From assembly GCA_000002445.1 (NCBI GenBank), contig CH464491.1, positions 800,001 through 864,000 of the forward strand: DNA of 64,000 nt, in the 5' to 3' direction. The notes beneath the pieces are model-generated. The model had not been told where the DNA came from. It ran no database searches and saw only the letters and a list, made by a program, of their open reading frames with translations. This stretch comes from Trypanosoma brucei. Lineage: Eukaryota. Of this stretch, positions 12,183-50,040 are shown piece after piece; position 1 is the stretch's first letter; each line of letters starts with the position of its first letter. Position numbers and translations under genes: made by a program.

Positions 12183-12772
12183 CTTTTCTGCTTATTCGCA
12201 CTTTGCCGTATTTCTCTCCTTATTTTCTTTTTTTTTCTTTTCTGATCTTTATCAACTAAAACCAACCACACCCACCCCTGACCCTTTTTTCAGTTGTGTT
12301 CGGTGCCGAATCTGACTCTCTTATTTAAGCTTATGTACAAATGAATGGTTGCTGAAGCAGGATTTCTCGACAATGATATGTACTATGAACTCCCAGGCCA
12401 AGTTGTAGGGTAAAGCGGACACAACACCGCACTACCCTTCTCTCAAACTTAACTACTTGGCAAACCACACTTCAAACACACACACTTACACTCAATGAAT
12501 CCAACGAAAATAAAAATATTAAAAAAAAAAAGAAACAGCATAGAAGAAATAAAATAAAAGGGATGGGATGGGATATGAATGGAAAAGAGGGAGTTCGCAA
12601 AACAGAAAAGTCCGAACAGACTTCTGGTTACTACATATGATTCTTCTTTTCTTCTTAGTCTGTTTTAACCGGATATCATGTATAAGACGCTACTCCTAGA
12701 GCACATGGATGCGATTCCTTATGCCCGTACGTGACAAAACCCACACACGCATTGTTTGGTAGAAATAACGTT

Positions 12773-12800
12773 ACACACACACATACACACACACACACAC
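12773..12800. repeat. Imperfect (AC)n microsatellite
   Basis: Read directly. Confidence 0.9.
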
Positions 12801-13030
12801 AATTTTTACCTCACCGATGCGAATCCCTCTTATTCACCGACGGTCTTAACCCATATGTGAATGCAAAAGTGAAAAAAAACAGAAAGAAAATTTTAACATT
12901 AAAAAAAAAAAGACAAACCGTATTGAAGGATCTGCTTCAGTCCTTTACCGACCCATATGATCGCAGGACAAAAAACCTTTAGGTGGTAACACCTGAAGAC
13001 AGGCCGCGCGAACACGAAAGAAATGGAGAT

Positions 13031-13075
13031 TATATATATATATATATATGCATATATATATATATATATGCATAT
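13031..13075. repeat. (AT)9GC(AT)9GC compound microsatellite
   Basis: Read directly. Confidence 0.9.
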
Positions 13076-13198
13076 AATTTCGTGTATGCCTATGAGGAAA
13101 TGAGACGAAACAAGACGAAAGACACTACAAAACAGACATGTGAACATTTCCCCTGGGCTTCAAACCCTCTTCATCCGCACCTTGCAATTCAGTATACT

Positions 13199-13783
13199 TT
13201 ACAAAGCGCGTTTTTTTTCCTTATCTCTCCACTCTTTAAGCCCTCGCTCAAAGACTCCACCCACCATTCCATTCGGGCAGTAAATGCTCGTAACGCCGAT
13301 GCTCGAGACGTGACCGATGTTGTCCTGCTGATTATCAAAGAAAATAAAGTCAGAAAAATCACCCCTTACAGTCGGATCGTGCTCTTTCACTTTCTTAAGA
13401 ATAGTACGGTGCTGATTTTTCTTGTTTGCCTTATATATTTCCACTAAATCACCGAACAGAGAAAGCATTGGCACATCATTTCCTCTCTTGTCTCTGAACC
13501 GAAACAATTGCAGCAGTTCCATCGCCCATCGCGGCTCATCACAAGTAGAAGATATCGCCAAATGGGTGTTCCGCCATTCCTCAGTTGTGCTCAGCATTTG
13601 CAGCAACTCCCGCGTTTGACCAATAAGACGCACTTCCGTCCCTTTTTTATCAATAGCAATGCTTGAGTTATCTTTCGACAGCATAAAGGGAGCGCCACCA
13701 CCCCAAAGTTCATACATCTCAGGCCTCCACAATGTGCCATCAAGATCAAAAACAATAACACGAGGGGTTGGCTCAGTACTCAT
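13199..13783 (-). CDS. MDP1: Magnesium-dependent phosphatase-1 (MDP-1), HAD-superfamily phosphatase
   Basis: HAD motif I 'VIVFDLDGTLW' lies directly after the start, and the overall layout resembles eukaryotic MDP-1. The track ORF began at a TTG at 13927; the first ATG (MSTEPTPRV...) is at 13783. Confidence 0.8.
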   Translation of the reverse strand: MSTEPTPRVIVFDLDGTLWRPEMYELWGGGAPFMLSKDNSSIAIDKKGTEVRLIGQTRELLQMLSTTEEWRNTHLAISSTCDEPRWAMELLQLFRFRDKRGNDVPMLSLFGDLVEIYKANKKNQHRTILKKVKEHDPTVRGDFSDFIFFDNQQDNIGHVSSIGVTSIYCPNGMVGGVFERGLKEWRDKEKKRAL

Positions 13784-15120
13784 TATGTCAGTGAGATCTC
13801 TCAAATGCAAGTAATTATAATATACAATACAATATATAATTATATAATTATATATTGTACAGTTATATTTATAGCGTATGCGCGTTTCCTTTCGTGTAAG
13901 GAGGAGATATATAGAAAGAGATGACAAAAGATAAAAATAAAGAAAGATAGAGAGCTAGGAGAATTTGGAGCGGAAGACCATACACAAATAGAACTGCGTT
14001 GAGAAAATACATAGAACAATCATTTGAAGGAAAAAAGAAAGAGGAAAAGAAGTAATTTTGAAGTGGTACGAAACCGTCAGCCACGTGGGTGACGCAGAAA
14101 GAAGAAGAAGATACGAAAAAAAAACTGAAAGTGACCAAGTAGGTGAGAAACGACAACAACAAAAAAAAATGTCTAACACATAATAATAAAATGGTGATAG
14201 TAGTGATTGCAAGGGTGGTAAAAATGATAACAGTAATGATAATAGTGATGGTAATAATAATAATAAGGTAAGGGGGGAGAAACCACTAATTCAGGGATAT
14301 AAAAAGTAGCAACTATTCTTTCAGTTGTTATTTTTCTTTTCTTCATTGGTTGTAGCATTCATTTTTCTTGTGTTCCCATATATATATTTTTCATGTTCTT
14401 GTTTTCTTTTCTTTTTTTTAAAAAAAACTGTACTGATCGCCTTTGTCTTGGCTTATTAGTGTTGTCGTTTCTTCCTTTTTTTTTTCCAAACCCTCTTCCC
14501 TTCCTTTTATTTGCTTTGTTTCACCCACTTTCGTATACAATCCCATCATACTTTGCCCAATATTTTATTTTTGTTTATTTTAATTCTTCTTTGTAAGTTG
14601 TTTTCTCGCCAGAAAGTGCGCAGTTTTGCAGCTGACTTGACTGACGATGGCACCGGAGCGATCAACAGCCCCTGGATATCTAAACATGATTGTAATTGGT
14701 TAATATCAATTTTAAAAAAAAAAAACATTTTGAATATTTACAACAGTGTTAAACATCACCAATATTAATATTAATAATAATAACAAGAAAGAAAAGAAAA
14801 GATGTAATAAGACCACTTACCCCCCTCCCCTCCCCTCCCTTACCAGTCATTAGTCTGATTTTGTAATTTCTTCCCTCCCCCCCTTTTTTTTTTATTTGCA
14901 CACGTGTGTGGAAAAGGGCGGGAAAAAGGAAACACAACACAACACAACAAAATAAAATAGAATAGAAGGAAAGAAAAGGAAAGGAGAAAATACTGATCAA
15001 AACCCGAATACAAAAAGAAAACGTCTTGAAGGCGGATGGAAGAGGCCAGACTCCGCAGGTAAAGTAAAGAAAAAGTATTTTTTTTTTTTGTGCAGGGAAA
15101 AAATAAAGGAAAATTTACCC

Positions 15121-15160
15121 ACACACAAACACACAAACACACACACACACACAAAGACAA
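15121..15160. repeat. Imperfect (AC)n / (ACAAAC)n tract
   Basis: Read directly. Confidence 0.85.
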
Positions 15161-15264
15161 CGAAACAGATCGAAAAATAGATAGAAAGACCACAGGAAAA
15201 AAAAACATACAGACAGACAGACACAATTTTTTTTTTTTTAAAGCTGTACATGTAAGCATAAGAA

Positions 15265-15267
<3 letters not shown>

Positions 15268-15296
<29 letters not shown>
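15268..15296. repeat. (AT)14 microsatellite
   Basis: Read directly. Confidence 0.9.
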
Positions 15297-15446
15297 CGCA
15301 TTTACACACAGTGAACGTGCTCATGAAACACTCACATAAACAAACACCAAAAATAACAGTTTAGTTTTCTTCCCTTTTAGTTGCTGTTACTGTTGCATGT
15401 TAATCTAATTATTCTTTCTTTTTTCTTTCTTCTTGTCGAGGCACGA

Positions 15447-15474
15447 TCACAAACACAAACACAAACACAAACAC
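15447..15474. repeat. (ACAAAC)n hexanucleotide repeat
   Basis: Read directly: cacaaacacaaacacaaacacaaaca. Confidence 0.85.
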
Positions 15475-17306
15475 CCAAATAATTAAAAAAAAAAAGAAAA
15501 CAAGCACAAGTAAATACAAAAGTGGAATTGAAAGATAGAAAAAAAAACAGATAAACAAATAAGCGAATGAGAGCACAATGCGGGTTTGACATATCACGAT
15601 AAAAAAAAAATTCACATCATATATTCACTTGGGAGAGTGTACTGCGGTAAACACCACAACAACAGAAGAAGAGAAAGAGAAAAAGGAGTGCTTTAAAAAT
15701 AATGAATAAATTAATCATTTAATTATCAATTTATTTATTCATTAAAATTAAAAAATTAAAAAAACAAAACGAAGCAAAATAGTTCAGAAACATAACAATA
15801 GCTACTTTTTTTTCTTATTTATTTATTTTTGATATCACCCATTGTTACTTTCGACCTTCTTTACACCATTATTATTATTATTATTATTTATGCATTAAGG
15901 ACGTCCCATTCCTTACGGGGCGACCCCTTTGATATCAAAGTGCTGTGGTTACCTTTCTTTATATTATATGATTTAATGTATATTATTTATCCTCCTTTTA
16001 TCTCTTTTTTTTTTTTTTAAGACCGTAATATTTTGTCTCATATCTCATTTATTACCGCATCTTTTCCTCCTCCTCCTTCTCCTTGTCCTTTTCGCGATAC
16101 ATACGCCCAATGACAAAAGAAAAAAAAAAAGGAAACAAATAAATAAATAAATATAAAAACACCCGTACAGTTACCGCCATTTACTGAAGAAAGGAGATTT
16201 GTTTGAGAAGGTATAAAAAGGGGGGAAAAAAGAAGAAAGATGTTACAGATAGGTGGTAAAAAGATCTGGGGAAAATAAATAAATATTTTATACGTATATG
16301 TCTACATACTTTTGAAACATATATGTACATCTACAAATTAAATAAAATTTTTTTAAAATGCCATGAGCAACCCTTTAAGAACTTAAATGGAGAGGGTTCC
16401 CCCTAATCAAAACAAAAATAACACAAAAACAATAATAATAATAATAATAATAACTCACTTCAACTGACGTACCGGCGGTTGCTTTGAACTTTTTTTAACC
16501 AAAAAAAAAAGGAAAATAAGCGCGTCGCCCCTCCAAACCCTCATACTTGTACTTTATCAATTTGTAATTCCTGATCTTCTGTCTTTACAGAAAAAAAAAA
16601 AGAATTATCATTATTTGTTTCTTCCTTCTATCTTCCTTTTTTTTTTACTGTTTGATCTCACCGTTTTAATTTTATTTCTTCTTTTCTTCCTGCTTTTGAC
16701 GGAAAGGCTGAATTCTACAAAATTTGCCTCTATACATGTGTCCACTAGAGGTATCATTTACGTGACTTTATTTACACGCCTTCCTTCCTTCCTTCCGTCA
16801 CACACTCTCTCTCTCTTTTTTTCTCCTTTTCTCCTCTTTTATATTTAAAAACAAAATAACATGTTGGCGCCGTTTTGTTTCGTTTTATTTCACCTCTTTC
16901 TTTTATATGATCCACACCTTTATTGTATGGGGGGGGGAAATAACTGGAAACAGACAAACAAAAAAAAAAAGAACCACCTATTTTGTATAAGTGTGCGGAT
17001 ATGCGCGTGTCCTGTGAGTATTTATTTCCCTCTCCTCAACGTTTCCCACTACTTTATTTATTCTTTTCCTCAAAAACAAAATCAAAAACCAAAAGCAATA
17101 CACACATATATAACATGTAAATATATATATATATATGTATGTATATAATGTCGCGACACATCGTTAATTATACCCATCGCTCAATCATCTCCCCGTTCAT
17201 GAAGTTAATTTCTCCACCACCTCTCCAGAGACAAGCATATCCATTCATATATAAATAAATATATAAATATATAATAAATTTAATATATATATATATTTAT
17301 ATGTGC

Positions 17307-17323
17307 GTGTGTGTGTGTGTGTG
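17307..17323. repeat. (GT)8 microsatellite flanked by AT-rich (TATA/AAATA) tracts
   Basis: Read directly. Confidence 0.85.
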
Positions 17324-17571
17324 CATGGATGCATATATAAATGTAAACATACACGTCAACGTATTCGCTTTCTCCACAGAAACACAGACACACATCACCA
17401 CACTATCATACAGCAGCAAAATAGTTTTTAAAGTATTTAAAAGGAAAGTTTATATACACAGCCACACTTCACACAATTGAAGTATCACATCACTTTTGTT
17501 TTAATTTATTTAAATAACGACTCCTTTACACTTTTTCACTCATTTACTCATCCACTTGTTCACTCGTTTCT

Positions 17572-17594
17572 TTGTTGTTGTTGTTGTTGTTGTT
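17572..17594. repeat. (TTG)8 trinucleotide repeat
   Basis: Read directly. Confidence 0.9.
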
Positions 17595-17804
17595 TTTTGA
17601 TTTCTTTATTTTTTTCCCCCCGTTTCTTTTACTCTTTTTCTTCGTTCCTTATATCACTCCGGAATTCTCCCTTTTCCCTTTTCCCTCCATTCACTACTTA
17701 AAAGTGTGACGATTGGAGAGAAAAATACTTTTTTTTAAAAAAAAAAAGGAACGGGGAATCCGTGGGAGAGACTAAAAGCGATTGAACTAATAAAAATGAT
17801 GATG

Positions 17805-17856
<52 letters not shown>
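17805..17856. repeat. (ATA)17 trinucleotide repeat preceded by (GAT)3
   Basis: Read directly. This is the longest perfect microsatellite in the window. Confidence 0.95.
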
Positions 17857-17857
<1 letters not shown>

Positions 17858-19754
17858 TGTAATTATAATAATTATTACAACTATTATAATTATAATAATA
17901 ATAATAAAGTGGTGTATAAATAAATATATAAATATATATATAAATATATATAGATATAGATATAAGTAAAACAGAAAAAAAAAGACATAAAAGTGAGCTA
18001 CTCGGTAATGGAGAAAAGAAGCGGAATATACGTCGCGCTCATTTCACACATCACATCCGCGACATAATCGAAAATAAAAGAAAAACAAAACAAAACGAAA
18101 GAAAATCATGAAAACGGAAAAAGGGAAAAAATGAGAAAAGGGTAAGTGATGTGCACAAAAAAAAAAAAATCGTGACAGCAAAAAAAAAAACAAAAGAAAA
18201 CAAAAGCGCACTCTTTGACTTCCTTCTGCGCATACATCATTAAGGTAAAAAAAAAAAGAGGGATAGAAGAGAAACAGTTAAAATAAAAAAAAGAAGGTAA
18301 AAATAACGAAAGAAAAACAACATCAATAACAATAAAAGTAATAATAATAATAAAGAAAAAAAAGAGTTTTCAAAGAGGTCACACAAATTTGGTCACACAC
18401 GTCCCTCTTCCACACCACTTGCCGCTTTTTTTTCTTTTACTTTTTCTCGTCCCATCACTTCTCTTCTTTTTCTTTGTTTTCCTCCAAACAAAACAAAACA
18501 AAAAAAAACCTCGCCCGCACCCAATCAAACATTTAGTTTTCTTTTACCTCATGCACCTTCCCTCACACCCATCCGGAAAAAAAAAAGCGTACACACGCAA
18601 CCAAAAACGCCAAAAAAAAAAATGAGTAAGTAAATAAATATAAATGAATGTAGATATAAATATAAATATTCATATAATAAACGTGATACTTTGATTTATT
18701 CATCTACTCCCTTCAACCGCTCATTGACACACGTAACATAAAACAAAAATAAAAAAAACACCAACACACTACTGAATACCCATCGATCCCAATTCCTCAC
18801 GTTAAGTTCCCCTCCTTCAATCATTATAATCTTAACAGTCACAGCGCAGGGAAATTTTAAAAAAAAAATAAATCAACTGCAAAAAAAAAACCGTTTCTTG
18901 TTGATACTGGCGTTGTTGTTGTTACAGTTTTCTTTTTTCTTCCAAGGTATTGTTACTGTTGTTGCTGCTCTTTCTTTTTGATTTGGCTCCGTTTTATTCT
19001 TTTCTCATTCATCTCCTTCATTTATCTCGCATCACACATTTTTCTCCGCTTATACGTCCTTCCTCTCTCTCTCCCTCTCTTCTTCACCTCTTGTTACCAT
19101 TGCAGGCATCTGTTGACGATGAATTAAAATGTGAGAAACGCAAAAAGATGAAAAAGTTGAATAACAAAAGACAAAAGCATAAAGCAAAAGCAAAAACAAC
19201 AAAAAACAAAAAAAACAACAAAGGAAAAAAAGATGGTGAAACAATAGGTAGGACGTAGAAGCCAAATTTAGTGAAGAAAATTTGAGTGGGGAAGCACAAC
19301 CTTGCATGCAAGTTAAGAGCGACAGGGTTAGATGGGGAAGGAGTAAAAAAAAAAACGAAAAGAACCCAGTTGAATTACATGCTTTGGAAAGTGGAAAGAG
19401 CTAGAGCAAAAAGAAAAAAAAGGAACAGATGCGTAAGAAAACAAGGAAACCGGTGAGGGAAATGATAAAAAAAAACAAAAGATAAAAGCGAGCGAAGAGA
19501 GAGAGAGAACCGGATGGGAAGAAGAGGGAAGGGAATGGGTGAAAACAGGGGCGAAAAAGCGAAGTGGGCAAATGGTGTGGGCCGAATGTGACACTGCCTC
19601 CGTCCACGACAATGACCGAGTTATTAATGAACATACCACACAAAAGGGAAGGGGGGGGGAAAAGCAAAGATGGAAAACAGGGAGAGAAAAAAGAAAACGA
19701 AGACAAAAAAAGTTATAAAGAAAAAAAAACAATGGGAGGGCGCATTGCCCTGCG

Positions 19755-32103: not shown

Positions 32104-33255
32104 TCACATGAAAGGCGCTCCAGTACTCATGGATCCCAGTACCTGCTTGTTGCGATATTTGTACCCGTTATACTTATTAAGCGATGGGGGAAGACGCATC
32201 GACTCGATGCAAGCATCATCCAACCGAAACGAGCTGCGGTGATGCATACGCGTCAACGTACTAATGGACCCAGTGGGGGGCGACACCATGGAGTGATACG
32301 TGTCAACTGTCAGGTTAAACCAGCGCTTCACAAACATACGGATTGTTTGTCCGTGTGTTAATATCACCACATTTGTGTCCATGGGAAAGTCCATCCGCTC
32401 CCGCTGGAAGGCATCTAAGAAGCTTGTAACCCGATCACACACATCAGCGCCACTTTCGCCGTGGGGAAAGCGGTAATAGAACTTGCCATACTTTTCCCTT
32501 TCAGCTAGATGGTGCAGGAGCTCCCCCTTTGACTTATATCGTCCGATGTCTCCATCCCGCAGTCGAACATCCTCTCGCACCCCAACAATAGACTCACCTT
32601 CCATCTTGTGCTCACTTCTATAGGCATCATACCCGCGCAGCACATGCTTGAATGACTGACGGCACCGCACGTAGGGGGAAAGGTAGTAATACACTGGCTC
32701 ATCCCCAATGAGCTGAGCCAGCCGGCGGCCCGCATCATAAGATTCCTCCTCACCCTCAGGAACTATAGGAATACGCCAATCAGGAGTTGTCACGTGCGTG
32801 CAAACGTTGACGTTGGCCAGGCTTCTACCGTTGCGCAGGAATATAATGCGCTTCACAGGCTCAACAGGTTGCGTTGGGAACTTAAGCATTTGGCGGCGGT
32901 CACCACTGCGAATAGTAATGGACATCCTACCCTGAGACTCCGTGTGTGTTACGTAGGCCGAAGTTGGAGAAGGCACGGAGAACATTGATGAAGCGGGGTC
33001 CGTTGTGGCTGCATTTGCTGCAGTTTCACAAAGGTTAACAGCAACTGCAGGTTCTTCTACTAGTGCCTTGGTTTCCTTTGAGACTTCCAAGGGCCTCACT
33101 GTCTGGGTAGTTGGTTGAGGGTGAAGGTGAGGTGGCCACGTGGAAGACGTGAAGTGCATAACGTCGCATAGCGGTGCCTTTAGTGACCCACATGACACAA
33201 TACGATCCCACTGCTTGCAAATCCGGTGATGAGAGCACCTGCGTACAACTGCCAT
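32104..33255 (-). CDS. Histidine-phosphatase (PGAM-like) superfamily paralogue whose nucleophilic His is replaced (RNG instead of RHG), a probable pseudo-phosphatase
   Basis: The family core aligns with the neighbouring gene: 'IIFLRNGRSLANVN' against 'LLLVRHGESEANVD'. 'SPYVRCRQS' and 'VVILTHGQTIRMFVKRW' are retained. A long N-terminal extension precedes the core. The first codon in the track is GTG; the ATG is at 33255. Confidence 0.75.
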   Translation of the reverse strand: MAVVRRCSHHRICKQWDRIVSCGSLKAPLCDVMHFTSSTWPPHLHPQPTTQTVRPLEVSKETKALVEEPAVAVNLCETAANAATTDPASSMFSVPSPTSAYVTHTESQGRMSITIRSGDRRQMLKFPTQPVEPVKRIIFLRNGRSLANVNVCTHVTTPDWRIPIVPEGEEESYDAGRRLAQLIGDEPVYYYLSPYVRCRQSFKHVLRGYDAYRSEHKMEGESIVGVREDVRLRDGDIGRYKSKGELLHHLAEREKYGKFYYRFPHGESGADVCDRVTSFLDAFQRERMDFPMDTNVVILTHGQTIRMFVKRWFNLTVDTYHSMVSPPTGSISTLTRMHHRSSFRLDDACIESMRLPPSLNKYNGYKYRNKQVLGSMSTGAPFM

Positions 33256-33641
33256 CACGTAGGGGGGAACTCACAGACCACAACTAAAGCTAAAAGAAAC
33301 GATCCGCGACAGCAAAAACGTGAGACTAAACGATAAAATCACAGAGCTAAAATAAGAGCCAAGAGAAACAACTCAAGAGAAGAAAGTAAAACAAAGAAGA
33401 AGAGAGCACGCAAATGCCGCCGGTTAAAAAACAGCTAGCAGGTAAGCGTGTGATGTTGAAAAGAGTGACCTTGGGAGAGGAGTGAGGGGTGACACGCACG
33501 AAAATGAGTGAACACACACATATACCAGGTACGTAAATACGTGTTACGTACATTACACCACTTTGCAAAATCCTTCAACATCACCTTCCCCTCGGGTATG
33601 TACAAGCACCTCTGACTCAGCAAGCATTCACAACCATCAAA

Positions 33642-34517
33642 TTACCGGTCCGTTCCCTCGCCTGCGGAAAAGGAGTAGCCACCTTCAGCGAACAGGTGAC
33701 GAAACAGTTGAACATTATCCTTTCCGTCAAACTTCATCATCTCTAAGAGTGGATCACTGCCGAAAAGCTTCTTGCTAGTATCCGTCATCACCAGTCGCCC
33801 CGCCTCACGCCTCTCCAGCACGACAATCCCGCAGTTGGGTGGGTTCTTCATCGTTTCAAAGACTTCCATCGGCGCCGAATACCACCGCCCAACAAACAAC
33901 CTAATCAAAAGTCCATGCGATATTATCACAACATTATGATCATCGTCGTCCGGTACCGTAAACGAGGCAGGACCGACGTCGTTGCTACTGCCAGTGATCA
34001 TTTGCTTCCGCGCCGAGAGATAATTTAGTTCCACACGTTCGCGAAAGAGGGAATCGAAAAACTTGGACACGCGGTCGCCGACATCCACACTACTTTCACC
34101 ATCTGGAAATCTGTAGTACGAGCGTCCAAACTCACTACGTTCAGCCCACATCTCGTCCATCTTGTCCAGTGGTTGGAAATTGCCAATCTCCTGCTCCCGC
34201 AACCGCTCGTCCTCGCGCTCACCTTGCACCTGTGACGGCAGTAGACTCTTGCGCACCTCGGTTAGGGTCTGTCTGGTGCGCGTGTACGGAGAATAGTAGA
34301 CGTACAATTTTTCATTCTTTATGATCTTCCGGAGCCTCCGGCCGCACTCGAAGGCCTGCTCGCGGCCCCGCGCCGTCAGCGGTATCTTCCAGTCCGGAAC
34401 CTTGCTATACAATGCGCGATCCACATTTGCCTCGGACTCGCCGTGTCGCACAAGAAGCAGCCGCCGTGGGAGCCAGTAACCACTCGACATATCCAGCTTG
34501 CGCCCACATCGTGACAT
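33642..34517 (-). CDS. Histidine phosphatase (phosphoglycerate-mutase family), with the catalytic RHG motif intact
   Basis: Motifs 'LLLVRHGESEAN', 'SPYTRTRQT' and 'VVIISHGLLIRLF' are present. The track start at 34541 is a TTG. In-frame ATGs lie at 34517 (MSRCG...) and 34490 (MSSGYWLPRRLLLVRHG...); the second would give a more typical N-terminus. Confidence 0.8.
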   Translation of the reverse strand: MSRCGRKLDMSSGYWLPRRLLLVRHGESEANVDRALYSKVPDWKIPLTARGREQAFECGRRLRKIIKNEKLYVYYSPYTRTRQTLTEVRKSLLPSQVQGEREDERLREQEIGNFQPLDKMDEMWAERSEFGRSYYRFPDGESSVDVGDRVSKFFDSLFRERVELNYLSARKQMITGSSNDVGPASFTVPDDDDHNVVIISHGLLIRLFVGRWYSAPMEVFETMKNPPNCGIVVLERREAGRLVMTDTSKKLFGSDPLLEMMKFDGKDNVQLFRHLFAEGGYSFSAGEGTDR

Positions 34518-45501: not shown

Positions 45502-46803
<1,302 letters not shown>

Positions 46804-47808: not shown

Positions 47809-49524
47809 CTAGCGTACACATAACCAAGGCTGTGTAACTTGAAGGGGTGAGGGTTGAGTTGGATGGATAGGTCCACTTTCAGCACGTTCAGCGTGTCGGT
47901 CAGACTCAAATTGGTAACTGGTACTATCTGTGAAGGAATCTACAGCACTATGATGTTCCGTCTCATCGTCCTCCCCTCCACACTGGTTTGTCGAAATGGG
48001 AATATGCCAAGTGAGGGGGCTCAGCTCCTGTATGCACTGCGCGTAGGGTGCTGGCATTTCCCAATGAAGCAGCGTGCGATCGTCTACGCGCGAGCATTTG
48101 AACGCGATACGGTGGCGATCGCGCCAGCGGGAGAAATGACGGGGACTGAGAAGTCTGAAGTGATGATCACGCATCAAGTCGTTCGTCAAAACCAACACCG
48201 TCTTCCCCTTCTCCTCACGAGGAACGGCATCAGTCGGTGTGGTGAGCTCCAATGCGGCGTACAGCCAACAAAGGTCATCGTTGAGACCACTTGGAGTGCA
48301 ATACAGCACACCTTCGCGACGCCACCTCGACACTAATGCTTTCCCAACATCTGTGACGTTGTTTGGTTCGCAGTGTCGTTCGTGTAACAGAACCAGCGGT
48401 TGCATGCCGCGGCGATAAGCCTCCTGCACAGCGAGTTCAATAAGTTCAAAATTAACGGACACATCAACAAAGCGGCGCTTCGACCAAGCAACATCCTGTG
48501 GTGCAATGTCGCTTTCTTTTCTTCCACGCCTTAAAAGCAGCTCTCGCTTGGCCAAGGCATACCAACTACTGAGGCCATAGTAGCCAAGGTTAGCGCCGTC
48601 CACTAGAACATCGATAGAGTGTCCGTGTGAAGAAATAAATCGTCGCCAGGTCTCAAACGCCATCCGCGCACGTGGTGAATTTTTCCGCCCGCCATCCATG
48701 GCAATCTGCACCACGTCACTCAAAAGCTTACTCTTTTGCAACGCTGTGAAACGGTGCCCGCTCAACACGCTGGAGCAAGAACAGCACGTTCCAGCAGGAA
48801 GCATTGCGTCGCTGTGTGGAAAAGTAACGTCTGTTACCTCCATCCCACCCCTCAAAGCCCAAGGCCGAATCACCTCTTCCGCTACCGCTGCAGACACGCC
48901 ATCCGCGTGCCCCTGCATCTCCCGCAACAAGCAGTGGAGCGTGGCTAAAGGCTCACCTATATTTACACAGAGGCGACCGATTGCAAGGTAGTCTTCCATA
49001 CTCAGATCCATCCTCTGCCGTAGCGCCTCTTCGTACACAGCGAAAGCCATGCGGCGGTCCCGACGTTTGCACCAGAAAGAAAGAAAGACAGAAACACTCC
49101 GCAAACGAAGCAGCTGATGGGAAACCATATAGGAAAACATCTTCGTAGCTCCAGCAGCATCACCGGCGGCACACTGTAGTCGTAAGATAACAGCCAACAC
49201 ACTTTCGTCGTCCCATAACCCCACCAAACCTGACTCCTGTACCTGCTTGACAAGGTCCATGGCAGTGTCCTCGTTTTTGGTGCGCTCAAGAAGAAATAAC
49301 GCATTTGCAAACGCCTTCATCGAGAAGACAGACTGAGATAACCCCATGCGGATTTCATCAACCACCCCTCGCACGTCACCCGCCCCAACGAGTTGTCCGA
49401 CACGACGCTGCAACTCCTCCACAGGTCGAATACTCTTCCAACGGCATTGAATGCTAGCACGTGCCAGCGTCGGAACAGGAACAAAGCGTGAAAATGCGGC
49501 AAAACCGTTCAACACGGAGCGCAT
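47809..49524 (-). CDS. PRORP: Protein-only RNase P (PRORP)-like protein: PPR-like N-terminal half plus a C-terminal NYN metallonuclease domain; probably organellar
   Basis: NYN/PRORP-like 'IDVLVDGANLGYYG' is followed by conserved acidic residues (FVDVS..., LHERH). The helical N-terminal half is PPR-like. The track start is GTG; the first ATG at 49524 gives 'MRSVLNGFAAFSRFVPVPTLARA', a presequence-like N-terminus. Confidence 0.55.
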   Translation of the reverse strand: MRSVLNGFAAFSRFVPVPTLARASIQCRWKSIRPVEELQRRVGQLVGAGDVRGVVDEIRMGLSQSVFSMKAFANALFLLERTKNEDTAMDLVKQVQESGLVGLWDDESVLAVILRLQCAAGDAAGATKMFSYMVSHQLLRLRSVSVFLSFWCKRRDRRMAFAVYEEALRQRMDLSMEDYLAIGRLCVNIGEPLATLHCLLREMQGHADGVSAAVAEEVIRPWALRGGMEVTDVTFPHSDAMLPAGTCCSCSSVLSGHRFTALQKSKLLSDVVQIAMDGGRKNSPRARMAFETWRRFISSHGHSIDVLVDGANLGYYGLSSWYALAKRELLLRRGRKESDIAPQDVAWSKRRFVDVSVNFELIELAVQEAYRRGMQPLVLLHERHCEPNNVTDVGKALVSRWRREGVLYCTPSGLNDDLCWLYAALELTTPTDAVPREEKGKTVLVLTNDLMRDHHFRLLSPRHFSRWRDRHRIAFKCSRVDDRTLLHWEMPAPYAQCIQELSPLTWHIPISTNQCGGEDDETEHHSAVDSFTDSTSYQFESDRHAERAESGPIHPTQPSPLQVTQPWLCVR

Positions 49525-50040
49525 CAGCACATAAGCGATAAACTCAGCTGTCCCTTCCCCACCCCTTCTCTCTGCATGTAATCCTCGGTCCCCAACCACG
49601 GTACCGTATAGAAAGAGAAATGGATACTAAAGGGGAAGGAGGTAGAAGAAATGAAAGGAGGAAACACCTGGCAAGATTTTACATAAAATTTAAGTGGAGA
49701 GAGGAAGCAGTAGCGGACAGTCACTGTATCCTTCACGAAGTTTGATGGGGAAGGAAATACAAGTAGACGTCACGTAGTATAATACAAAAAACCAGTAAAA
49801 AGGTAAAAAAAAAACTCCCTGAAGCGCTACTTTTTCCCGCAGTTGCCCTCACCCACCGGGCGGCCAACCCGCACCCGTGAGGAAGGGCAAAGCAAAGGCG
49901 ATGATAAAGATGGGAATTTAAAAAAAAACACCAACTCGGCCGCTTCCAACAAGGCACCTCTCAGCGAGCAGATGGGGTTCGTCAACGCATGCGAACCAAC
50001 TTATAAAGTTCGCGGGGGAAAGTACATTTCCCCATATCAC

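Follow-up and report, generated by a model that had tools for sequence, protein, structure and literature searches.

The stretch analyzed here, referred to as the window, comprises 64,000 nucleotides of Trypanosoma brucei DNA (contig CH464491.1 of assembly GCA_000002445.1, positions 800,001 to 864,000 of the forward strand). It contains two adjacent genes on the minus strand, designated copy A and copy B in the order of their transcription, that encode paralogous proteins of the histidine phosphatase superfamily (Table 1). A sequence-only reading of this region had described such a pair, with an intact catalytic RHG motif in the upstream gene and an RNG motif in the downstream one, and had interpreted the latter as a catalytically dead pseudo-enzyme that arose by tandem duplication. 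Our analysis confirmed the observation and supported the interpretation with several refinements. Both open reading frames (ORFs) were found at the positions given, as adjacent minus-strand genes, and the encoded proteins are 100% identical to the annotated T. brucei-group proteins P0064 (copy A, 291 amino acids) and P0001 (copy B, 383 amino acids). Gene identifiers and molecular masses were taken from the ImportOmics supplement of Peikert et al. (2017).

Table 1. Features of the two histidine phosphatase paralogues, given as positions in the window. AF2, AlphaFold2; pLDDT, predicted local distance difference test.
Feature	Position	Strand	Description
Copy A, Tb927.11.2920	33642..34517	(-)	291 aa, 33.7 kDa; intact branch-1 histidine phosphatase; annotated 'glycerolphosphate mutase, putative'
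His25 codon of A	34443..34445	(-)	CAC; nucleophile
Copy B, Tb927.11.2910	32104..33255	(-)	383 aa, 43.7 kDa; His-less, Glu-less paralogue; annotated 'phosphoglycerate mutase, putative (iPGAM)'
N-terminal extension of B	32860..33255	(-)	Residues 1-132; basic start MAVVRRCSHHRICK resembling a mitochondrial presequence, then a variable disordered linker
Pre-domain motif MSITIRSG	32902..32925	(-)	Residues 111-118 of B; shared by the B orthologues of Trypanosoma, Phytomonas and bodonids
Histidine phosphatase core of B	32221..32853	(-)	Approximately residues 135-345; Pfam 137-342; AF2 pLDDT 95-99
Asn142 codon of B	32830..32832	(-)	AAC, one base from CAC; former nucleophile site
Asp234 codon of B	32554..32556	(-)	GAT; former general-acid Glu site (alignment to YKR043C)
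B-clade C-terminal tail	32107..32193	(-)	Residues 355-383, LPPSLNKYNGYKYRNKQVLGSMSTGAPFM

As evidenced by a BLASTP comparison, the two proteins share 79 identities over 228 positions (35%, E 4e-48), and the three sequence blocks on which the claim of paralogy had been founded were all recovered. Both score well above the gathering cut-off of 21.7 bits for the Pfam family PF00300, copy A with 98.8 bits and copy B with 56.4 bits, the alignment of the latter spanning residues 137-342 and positions 1-187 of the 194 in the profile. The AF2 model of copy A has a mean pLDDT of 86.9, and in copy B residues 133-330 reach values of 95-99. Foldseek searches of the PDB with these models returned branch-1 histidine phosphatases only, at 15-25% identity. 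They included dPGM, Rv2419c GpgP, TIGAR and FBPase-2, with a probability of 1.00 and E values around 1e-11 for copy B, as well as YKR043C and PhoE. Both copies are absent from the PDB, and neither forms part of any solved trypanosome complex.

The database names of the two proteins, PGAM, iPGAM and glycerolphosphate mutase, are unsupported and misleading, and all three could send metabolic reconstructions astray. A genuine dPGM was rejected, as the best NCBIfam models for dPGM gave scores of 15-43 bits against cut-offs of 82-409, and no cut-off of an NCBIfam equivalog model was reached by either copy. Note that iPGAM has a different fold and belongs to the alkaline phosphatase superfamily, with Metalloenzyme and iPGM_N domains. 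In copy B the sole significant Pfam match was PF00300, and no iPGAM metalloenzyme domain was found. For copy A, nothing was found in favor of the name glycerolphosphate mutase.

The family is characterized by a phospho-accepting histidine and a glutamate that serves as general acid; copy A has both and copy B has neither. In copy A the catalytic set is complete with R24, H25, R80, E108 and H201, and the residues at the same positions of copy B are R141, N142, R197, D234 and H301. The earlier description of an intact RHG motif in copy A, and of an asparagine for the phospho-accepting histidine in copy B with both arginines and the second histidine retained, was thus accurate. When the catalytic residues were listed for both copies, the loss of the histidine was borne out, and it also emerged that the replacement of the acidic glutamate by D234 had been overlooked. 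In HMMER alignments N142 falls on the nucleophilic histidine of yeast YKR043C, the residue mutated in PDB entry 3ll4 ('H13A'), and D234 on its acidic glutamate. The codon for residue 142 reads AAC, and a sequencing error can be dismissed because at least 40 orthologues from independent assemblies likewise lack a histidine in this column. As the phospho-accepting histidine is missing from copy B and from its orthologues, we regard copy B, judged by its residues, as a structural and not a catalytic member of the superfamily. The phosphate pocket itself, formed by the arginine of the RHG motif, a second arginine and the second histidine, is kept in both proteins (R24/R80/H201 in copy A, R141/R197/H301 in copy B), and from these conserved residues copy B may, as the sequence-only reading had suggested, still bind a phosphosubstrate.

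Copies A and B define two orthogroups, each of which is represented in Trypanosoma, Leishmaniinae, Phytomonas, Bodo saltans, Trypanoplasma borreli and many uncultured kinetoplastid-like sequences. Every protein of the A clade has the complete set R-H..R..E..H. In the 43 proteins of the B clade the nucleophile site is occupied by N, S, G or C, or by T in Phytomonas, and the acid site by D or, in one subclade, by G. Asparagine is the most frequent residue at the former position, with serine in T. cruzi, T. rangeli and T. melophagium, glycine in T. grayi and cysteine in one uncultured subclade. The loss of the histidine is conserved across trypanosomatids, although the asparagine itself is not fixed. 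Both arginines and the second histidine of the pocket are invariant in the two clades, and the B clade also keeps the YRFPxGES block. The exception is P0270, a tail-bearing relative that has lost the second histidine.

Copy B follows copy A on the same strand in 11 of the 11 genomic contexts examined, namely the window and the loci L001, L003, L004/L005 and L006-L011, which together represent T. brucei, T. cruzi (two strains), T. c. marinkellei, T. rangeli, T. grayi, L. donovani, Phytomonas EM1, Bodo saltans and two uncultured bodonid-like contigs. The pair is followed by a zf-HIT gene in trypanosomatids and preceded by a DUF383 gene in trypanosomatids as well as in Bodo. Both the tandem arrangement and the loss of the histidine are older than the diversification of the kinetoplastids sampled, so the pair does not go back to a recent event in T. 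brucei. A duplication specific to this species was rejected, with both clades spanning Kinetoplastea and the tandem being present in Bodo and in the uncultured bodonid-like contigs. The conserved adjacency suggests that the two genes arose by tandem duplication.

A gene that has lost its catalytic residues might simply be decaying, or the asparagine codon might be an error of sequencing or assembly, and besides the missing histidine a frameshifted gene model for the orthologue in Phytomonas EM1 could be cited for this possibility. We calculated the ratio of nonsynonymous to synonymous substitution rates (dN/dS) for each paralogue by the method of Nei and Gojobori (NG86). For T. cruzi CL Brener compared with T. 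c. marinkellei, a pair in which dS is unsaturated, dN/dS was 0.045 for copy A (dS 0.135) and 0.043 for copy B (dS 0.154), so that both genes are constrained; a comparison of T. cruzi with T. rangeli gave 0.10 and 0.12, respectively. The reading frame of copy B is unbroken, and across Trypanosoma its core is 73-81% identical, a degree of conservation at least equal to that of copy A. Copy B is clearly under purifying selection as strong as that acting on copy A and is a functional gene, not a decaying one. With peptides of the protein detected by mass spectrometry and the His-less state present in at least 40 assemblies, we rejected both a pseudogene and a sequencing error and give this explanation practically no credence.

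The Phytomonas sp. EM1 orthologue (L009, 12216-13279) has an R-T-G motif, and its gene model is frameshifted in a Ser/Thr-rich low-complexity insert. The downstream half, read in another frame, is 77% identical to the Leptomonas protein and has an intact tail. Decay of copy B in Phytomonas was thus also discarded, the frameshift being confined to the insert and probably reflecting an assembly error.

A feature that sets the B clade apart is its C-terminal tail. Copy B of the window ends in ..NGYKYRNKQVLGSMSTGAPFM and fits the consensus LPxSLxxxNGYxxRN(K)xxLGSxSxGAP[FY][MLVI]-COOH that was found in all B-clade proteins, and that is missing from the A clade and from all outgroups examined. Eight of its residues, R368, N369, L373, G374, S375, G379, A380 and P381, are invariant in 22 B-clade proteins. 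When a profile of the B clade was run against 1.84e9 representatives, only about 16 aligned through the tail, followed by a sharp drop in score to the generic family. With the tail columns excluded, the tail-bearing proteins still formed a clade, with a neighbor-joining (NJ) bootstrap of 89/100.

The basal members of this clade, P0184, P0186 and P0188, retain the RHG motif and have an alanine or a proline at the acid site. Because these tail-bearing relatives have the histidine and no glutamate, the sequence of events was likely one in which the tail was gained and the general acid lost first, with the nucleophile disappearing later. This would provide a natural series for the conversion of a phosphatase into a binding module, in which loss of the acid preceded that of the nucleophile, and one lineage went on to lose the second histidine as well. 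Two further tail-bearing proteins deserve mention. P0042 (L002, JGI metagenome 3300031465) belongs to the B clade and has an aspartate at the acid site, yet it shows an RHG motif. It is nested inside the His-less group beside the RNG protein P0035 (83/100), which suggests a retained histidine, or a reversion from asparagine by a single base change, or may be a sign of independent losses. P0270, the most degenerate protein seen, has R-C-G for the nucleophile motif, a glycine at the acid site and T-D-G for T-H-G.

At the other end of the protein, the sequence-only reading had noted an N-terminal extension of about 130 residues. It is present, but the phosphatase domain starts near residue 135 in copy B and near residue 19 in copy A, such that the segment preceding the domain is longer by about 116 residues. 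The extension is predicted to be disordered, the AF2 model having pLDDT values under 50 in residues 1-84 and of 49-57 from there to around residue 120. Within an alignment of Trypanosoma B orthologues the M-x-R-R/W start is conserved and the linker is variable, and the length of the extension ranges from about 30 residues in Bodo to about 300 in Leishmania. The gene models of Leptomonas pyrrhocoris P0015 and of the bodonid-like P0024 and P0037 begin at the conserved methionine of the MSITIRSG motif, which might be an alternative start for an isoform without presequence or lie near the mature N-terminus. In Leishmaniinae (e.g. P0022, L003 6001-7863) copy B in addition carries a large acidic or low-complexity insertion of about 60-70 residues that contains 'EWWEDEE' and separates the SPYxR helix from the RLRD motif. 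Together with N-terminal extensions of about 170-320 residues in Leishmania and Leptomonas, this insertion brings the protein to approximately double the size of its bodonid counterpart.

The retention of the pocket raises the question of whether copy B could still be an enzyme, using a non-canonical mechanism, for instance one in which His301 and Asp234/Asp236 assist a direct attack by water or in which the nucleophile has been relocated. The conservation of the two arginines and the histidine of the pocket together with D234 and D236 would be compatible with this, and the pseudoenzyme literature cautions that catalytic residues may move (PMC10211241). The free variation at position 142, where N, S, G, C and T all occur, speaks against a requirement for any particular chemistry and against a replacement nucleophile at this site. 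The acid site is a glycine in one subclade, the second histidine is also lost in P0270, and the core of the B clade showed no new invariant histidine, cysteine or serine of its own. We consider an active copy B of this kind quite improbable. With the chemistry of a phospho-histidine intermediate presumably lost and the pocket, the fold and the new tail nevertheless strongly constrained, binding through pocket and tail rather than catalysis is most likely the function of the protein.

Both copies belong to the mitochondrial proteins that Peikert et al. (2017) used as their reference set, and their response to the knock-down of the import pore ATOM40 was nearly the same. In purified mitochondria the levels of copies A and B fell to 0.274 and 0.277 of the control, in whole cells to 0.49 and 0.55 and in organelle fractions to 0.49 and 0.52, respectively. 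Import of copy B depends on ATOM40, and its peptides were detected by mass spectrometry in the same study (Peikert et al. 2017). According to TrypTag, as quoted in PMC7568655, copy B localizes to the mitochondrion and the kinetoplast. In an ORFeome gain-of-function screen its overexpression was enriched 23-fold among survivors of melarsoprol treatment (PMC7568655), a single high-throughput observation that offers a starting phenotype. Searches of the literature by name or gene identifier retrieved only the table of that screen, and nothing on the function of either copy or on the missing histidine of copy B. Neither protein was found in the supplements of TrypTag, of Crozier 2017, of a kinetoplast DNA screen or of a mitoproteome review.

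The kinetoplast signal invites a reading in which copy B acts apart from copy A, as a phosphate-recognizing, non-catalytic reader or adaptor subunit in kinetoplast or mitochondrial nucleic acid metabolism, in the manner of RESC1/2. A co-fractionation edge links it to the editosome protein KREPA3 (Gazestani et al. 2016, PMC4798371, S2 Table), although this is a weak connection, one edge in a network of 13,865. The mitochondrial RNA complexes of kinetoplastids are rich in pseudoenzymes, and in Trypanosoma and bodonids the isoelectric point of the core is 7.3-9.2 for copy B versus 5.4-7.1 for copy A. In Leishmaniinae, however, the B core is acidic, so that copy B, though more basic than copy A, is not basic throughout. 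Copy B also does not appear among the components of RECC, RESC and REH2C in a 2026 review, nor in any solved complex. On balance we find an independent adaptor rather doubtful.

Many branch-1 histidine phosphatases are dimeric, and copy B may alternatively act as a prozyme, forming an obligate heteromer with copy A and controlling its activity or stability. This would agree with the A-then-B tandem and the co-occurrence of both genes in every kinetoplastid context examined, with the shared organelle and with the almost identical response to ATOM40 depletion. There are precedents in trypanosomatids in the prozyme of AdoMetDC and in the catalytically dead DHS paralogue, both of which activate their partner enzymes. 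On the other side of the balance, the searches returned no record of an A-B interaction, and copy A has a confident stand-alone AF2 model in addition to all of its catalytic residues. We hold the strict prozyme model to be possible but less likely than not.

Taken together, we propose that copy B is an ancient, selectively maintained mitochondrial pseudo-phosphatase that acts by binding, possibly as a prozyme-like partner of copy A, and we assign this reading a probability of roughly 0.72. Copy B would descend from an A-like enzyme, and it has stayed directly downstream of copy A within one polycistron. Its ancestor would first have lost the general-acid glutamate and gained the new invariant C-terminal tail, and later the phospho-accepting histidine, after which no phospho-histidine intermediate could be formed. 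The anion pocket of Arg141, Arg197 and His301 and the well-folded core are retained; a ligand with a phosphate group would be held by the pocket, and a partner would be contacted by the tail. The data show the paralogy, the residue losses and their age, the purifying selection, the tail of the clade and the mitochondrial location, from which the loss of activity, the retained binding of a ligand and the identity of the partner are inferred. By analogy with the prozyme pairs of trypanosomatids, the favored candidate for this partner would be copy A.

Several points weigh against this proposal. The tail was modeled with low confidence (pLDDT 38-49), and the designation of copy B as dead rests on its sequence. 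In the NJ tree the grouping of A and B as sisters is left at a bootstrap of 46/100, and conserved adjacency is a weak argument in kinetoplastids, whose polycistrons tend to keep their synteny. Copy A, with its complete catalytic set, gives no sign of requiring an activator. The sole interaction-type record found for copy B leads to KREPA3 and none to copy A, and both proteins are missing from the supplements of a second complex-profiling study.

In a more far-reaching form of the proposal, copy B would be the non-catalytic half of an unrecognized mitochondrial enzyme-pseudoenzyme pair of pre-trypanosomatid age. By means of its pocket and its invariant tail it would either switch copy A on or off or recognize a ligand carrying phosphate, at the kinetoplast or the RNA editing machinery. 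We put this forward as a conjecture. In the former case, no prozyme system would have been known before from the histidine phosphatase superfamily or from the mitochondrion. The regulation of live enzymes by dead paralogues is a recurring theme in trypanosomatids, and with AdoMetDC and DHS one of proven relevance for drug targets. The A/B pair would extend it to a new superfamily, to the mitochondrion and to the base of Kinetoplastea.

Some further features of the window are recorded here. The polycistron that holds copy A also contains, about 11 kb further upstream, an ORF at 45502-46770 (-) for KREPB4/MP46, which is known as an RNase III-like pseudoenzyme of the RNA editing core (match to PDB 9dei_D, E 1.8e-278), and the next ORF upstream of it, at 47809-49599, encodes a protein-only RNase P of the PRORP type. 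Positions 12200-19700, within the dense minus-strand polycistron, are gene-poor and AT-rich (GC 0.30-0.40), without an ORF of at least 250 amino acids and with a (TAA)40 microsatellite at 17788-17907.

Among known systems, the solved active branch-1 enzymes TIGAR (3e9c), PhoE (1ebb/1h2e), YKR043C/Shb17 (3f3k, 3ll4), Rv2419c GpgP, the FBPase-2 domain and dPGM share fold and pocket with both copies, and copy A also shows their full R-H-R-E-H set. Identity to them is limited to 15-25%, and copy B differs from them by the lack of nucleophile and glutamate and by its extra tail. The nearest relatives outside kinetoplastids, P0058 from Porphyridium and P0216 from Andalucia, carry automated names referring to the plant AT74/AT74H group and share the motifs RHGES.aN, PDW.IPL and YRFPxGES. 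Unlike copy B, the outgroup proteins examined keep the RHG motif and the glutamate and do not have the B-clade tail. Arabidopsis AT74H also has an asparagine for the catalytic histidine, which would constitute an independent parallel; a literature search on AT74H found nothing.

The pseudophosphatases STYX, MK-STYX and those of the OCA type resemble copy B in that the nucleophile is substituted and the phosphate-binding loop kept. Their mode of action is binding, in some cases as heterodimers with active paralogues, but their fold is that of the Cys-based PTP/DSP enzymes. Closer in compartment are RESC1/2 (GAP1/2), mitochondrial pseudo-phosphohydrolases whose catalytic residues are gone and whose phosphate site is retained for recognition, the dead RNA triphosphatase fold binding the 5'-triphosphate of the guide RNA. 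In contrast to copy B, their fold is a triphosphate tunnel and their ligand is established, and copy B is no documented subunit of RESC or RECC.

With the AdoMetDC prozyme and the dead DHS paralogue, copy B shares the status of a catalytically impaired paralogue of an active enzyme that is conserved across trypanosomatids and under purifying selection. For those pairs the heteromer and a large activation have been demonstrated, whereas the A/B pair is known from sequence and location; copy A moreover appears fully competent, and the A/B pair is mitochondrial and older, being present in bodonids. A pseudoenzyme kept beside its active paralogue is thus of a known kind, while the present case is new in its family, compartment and age, in the clade-specific tail and in the stepwise losses.

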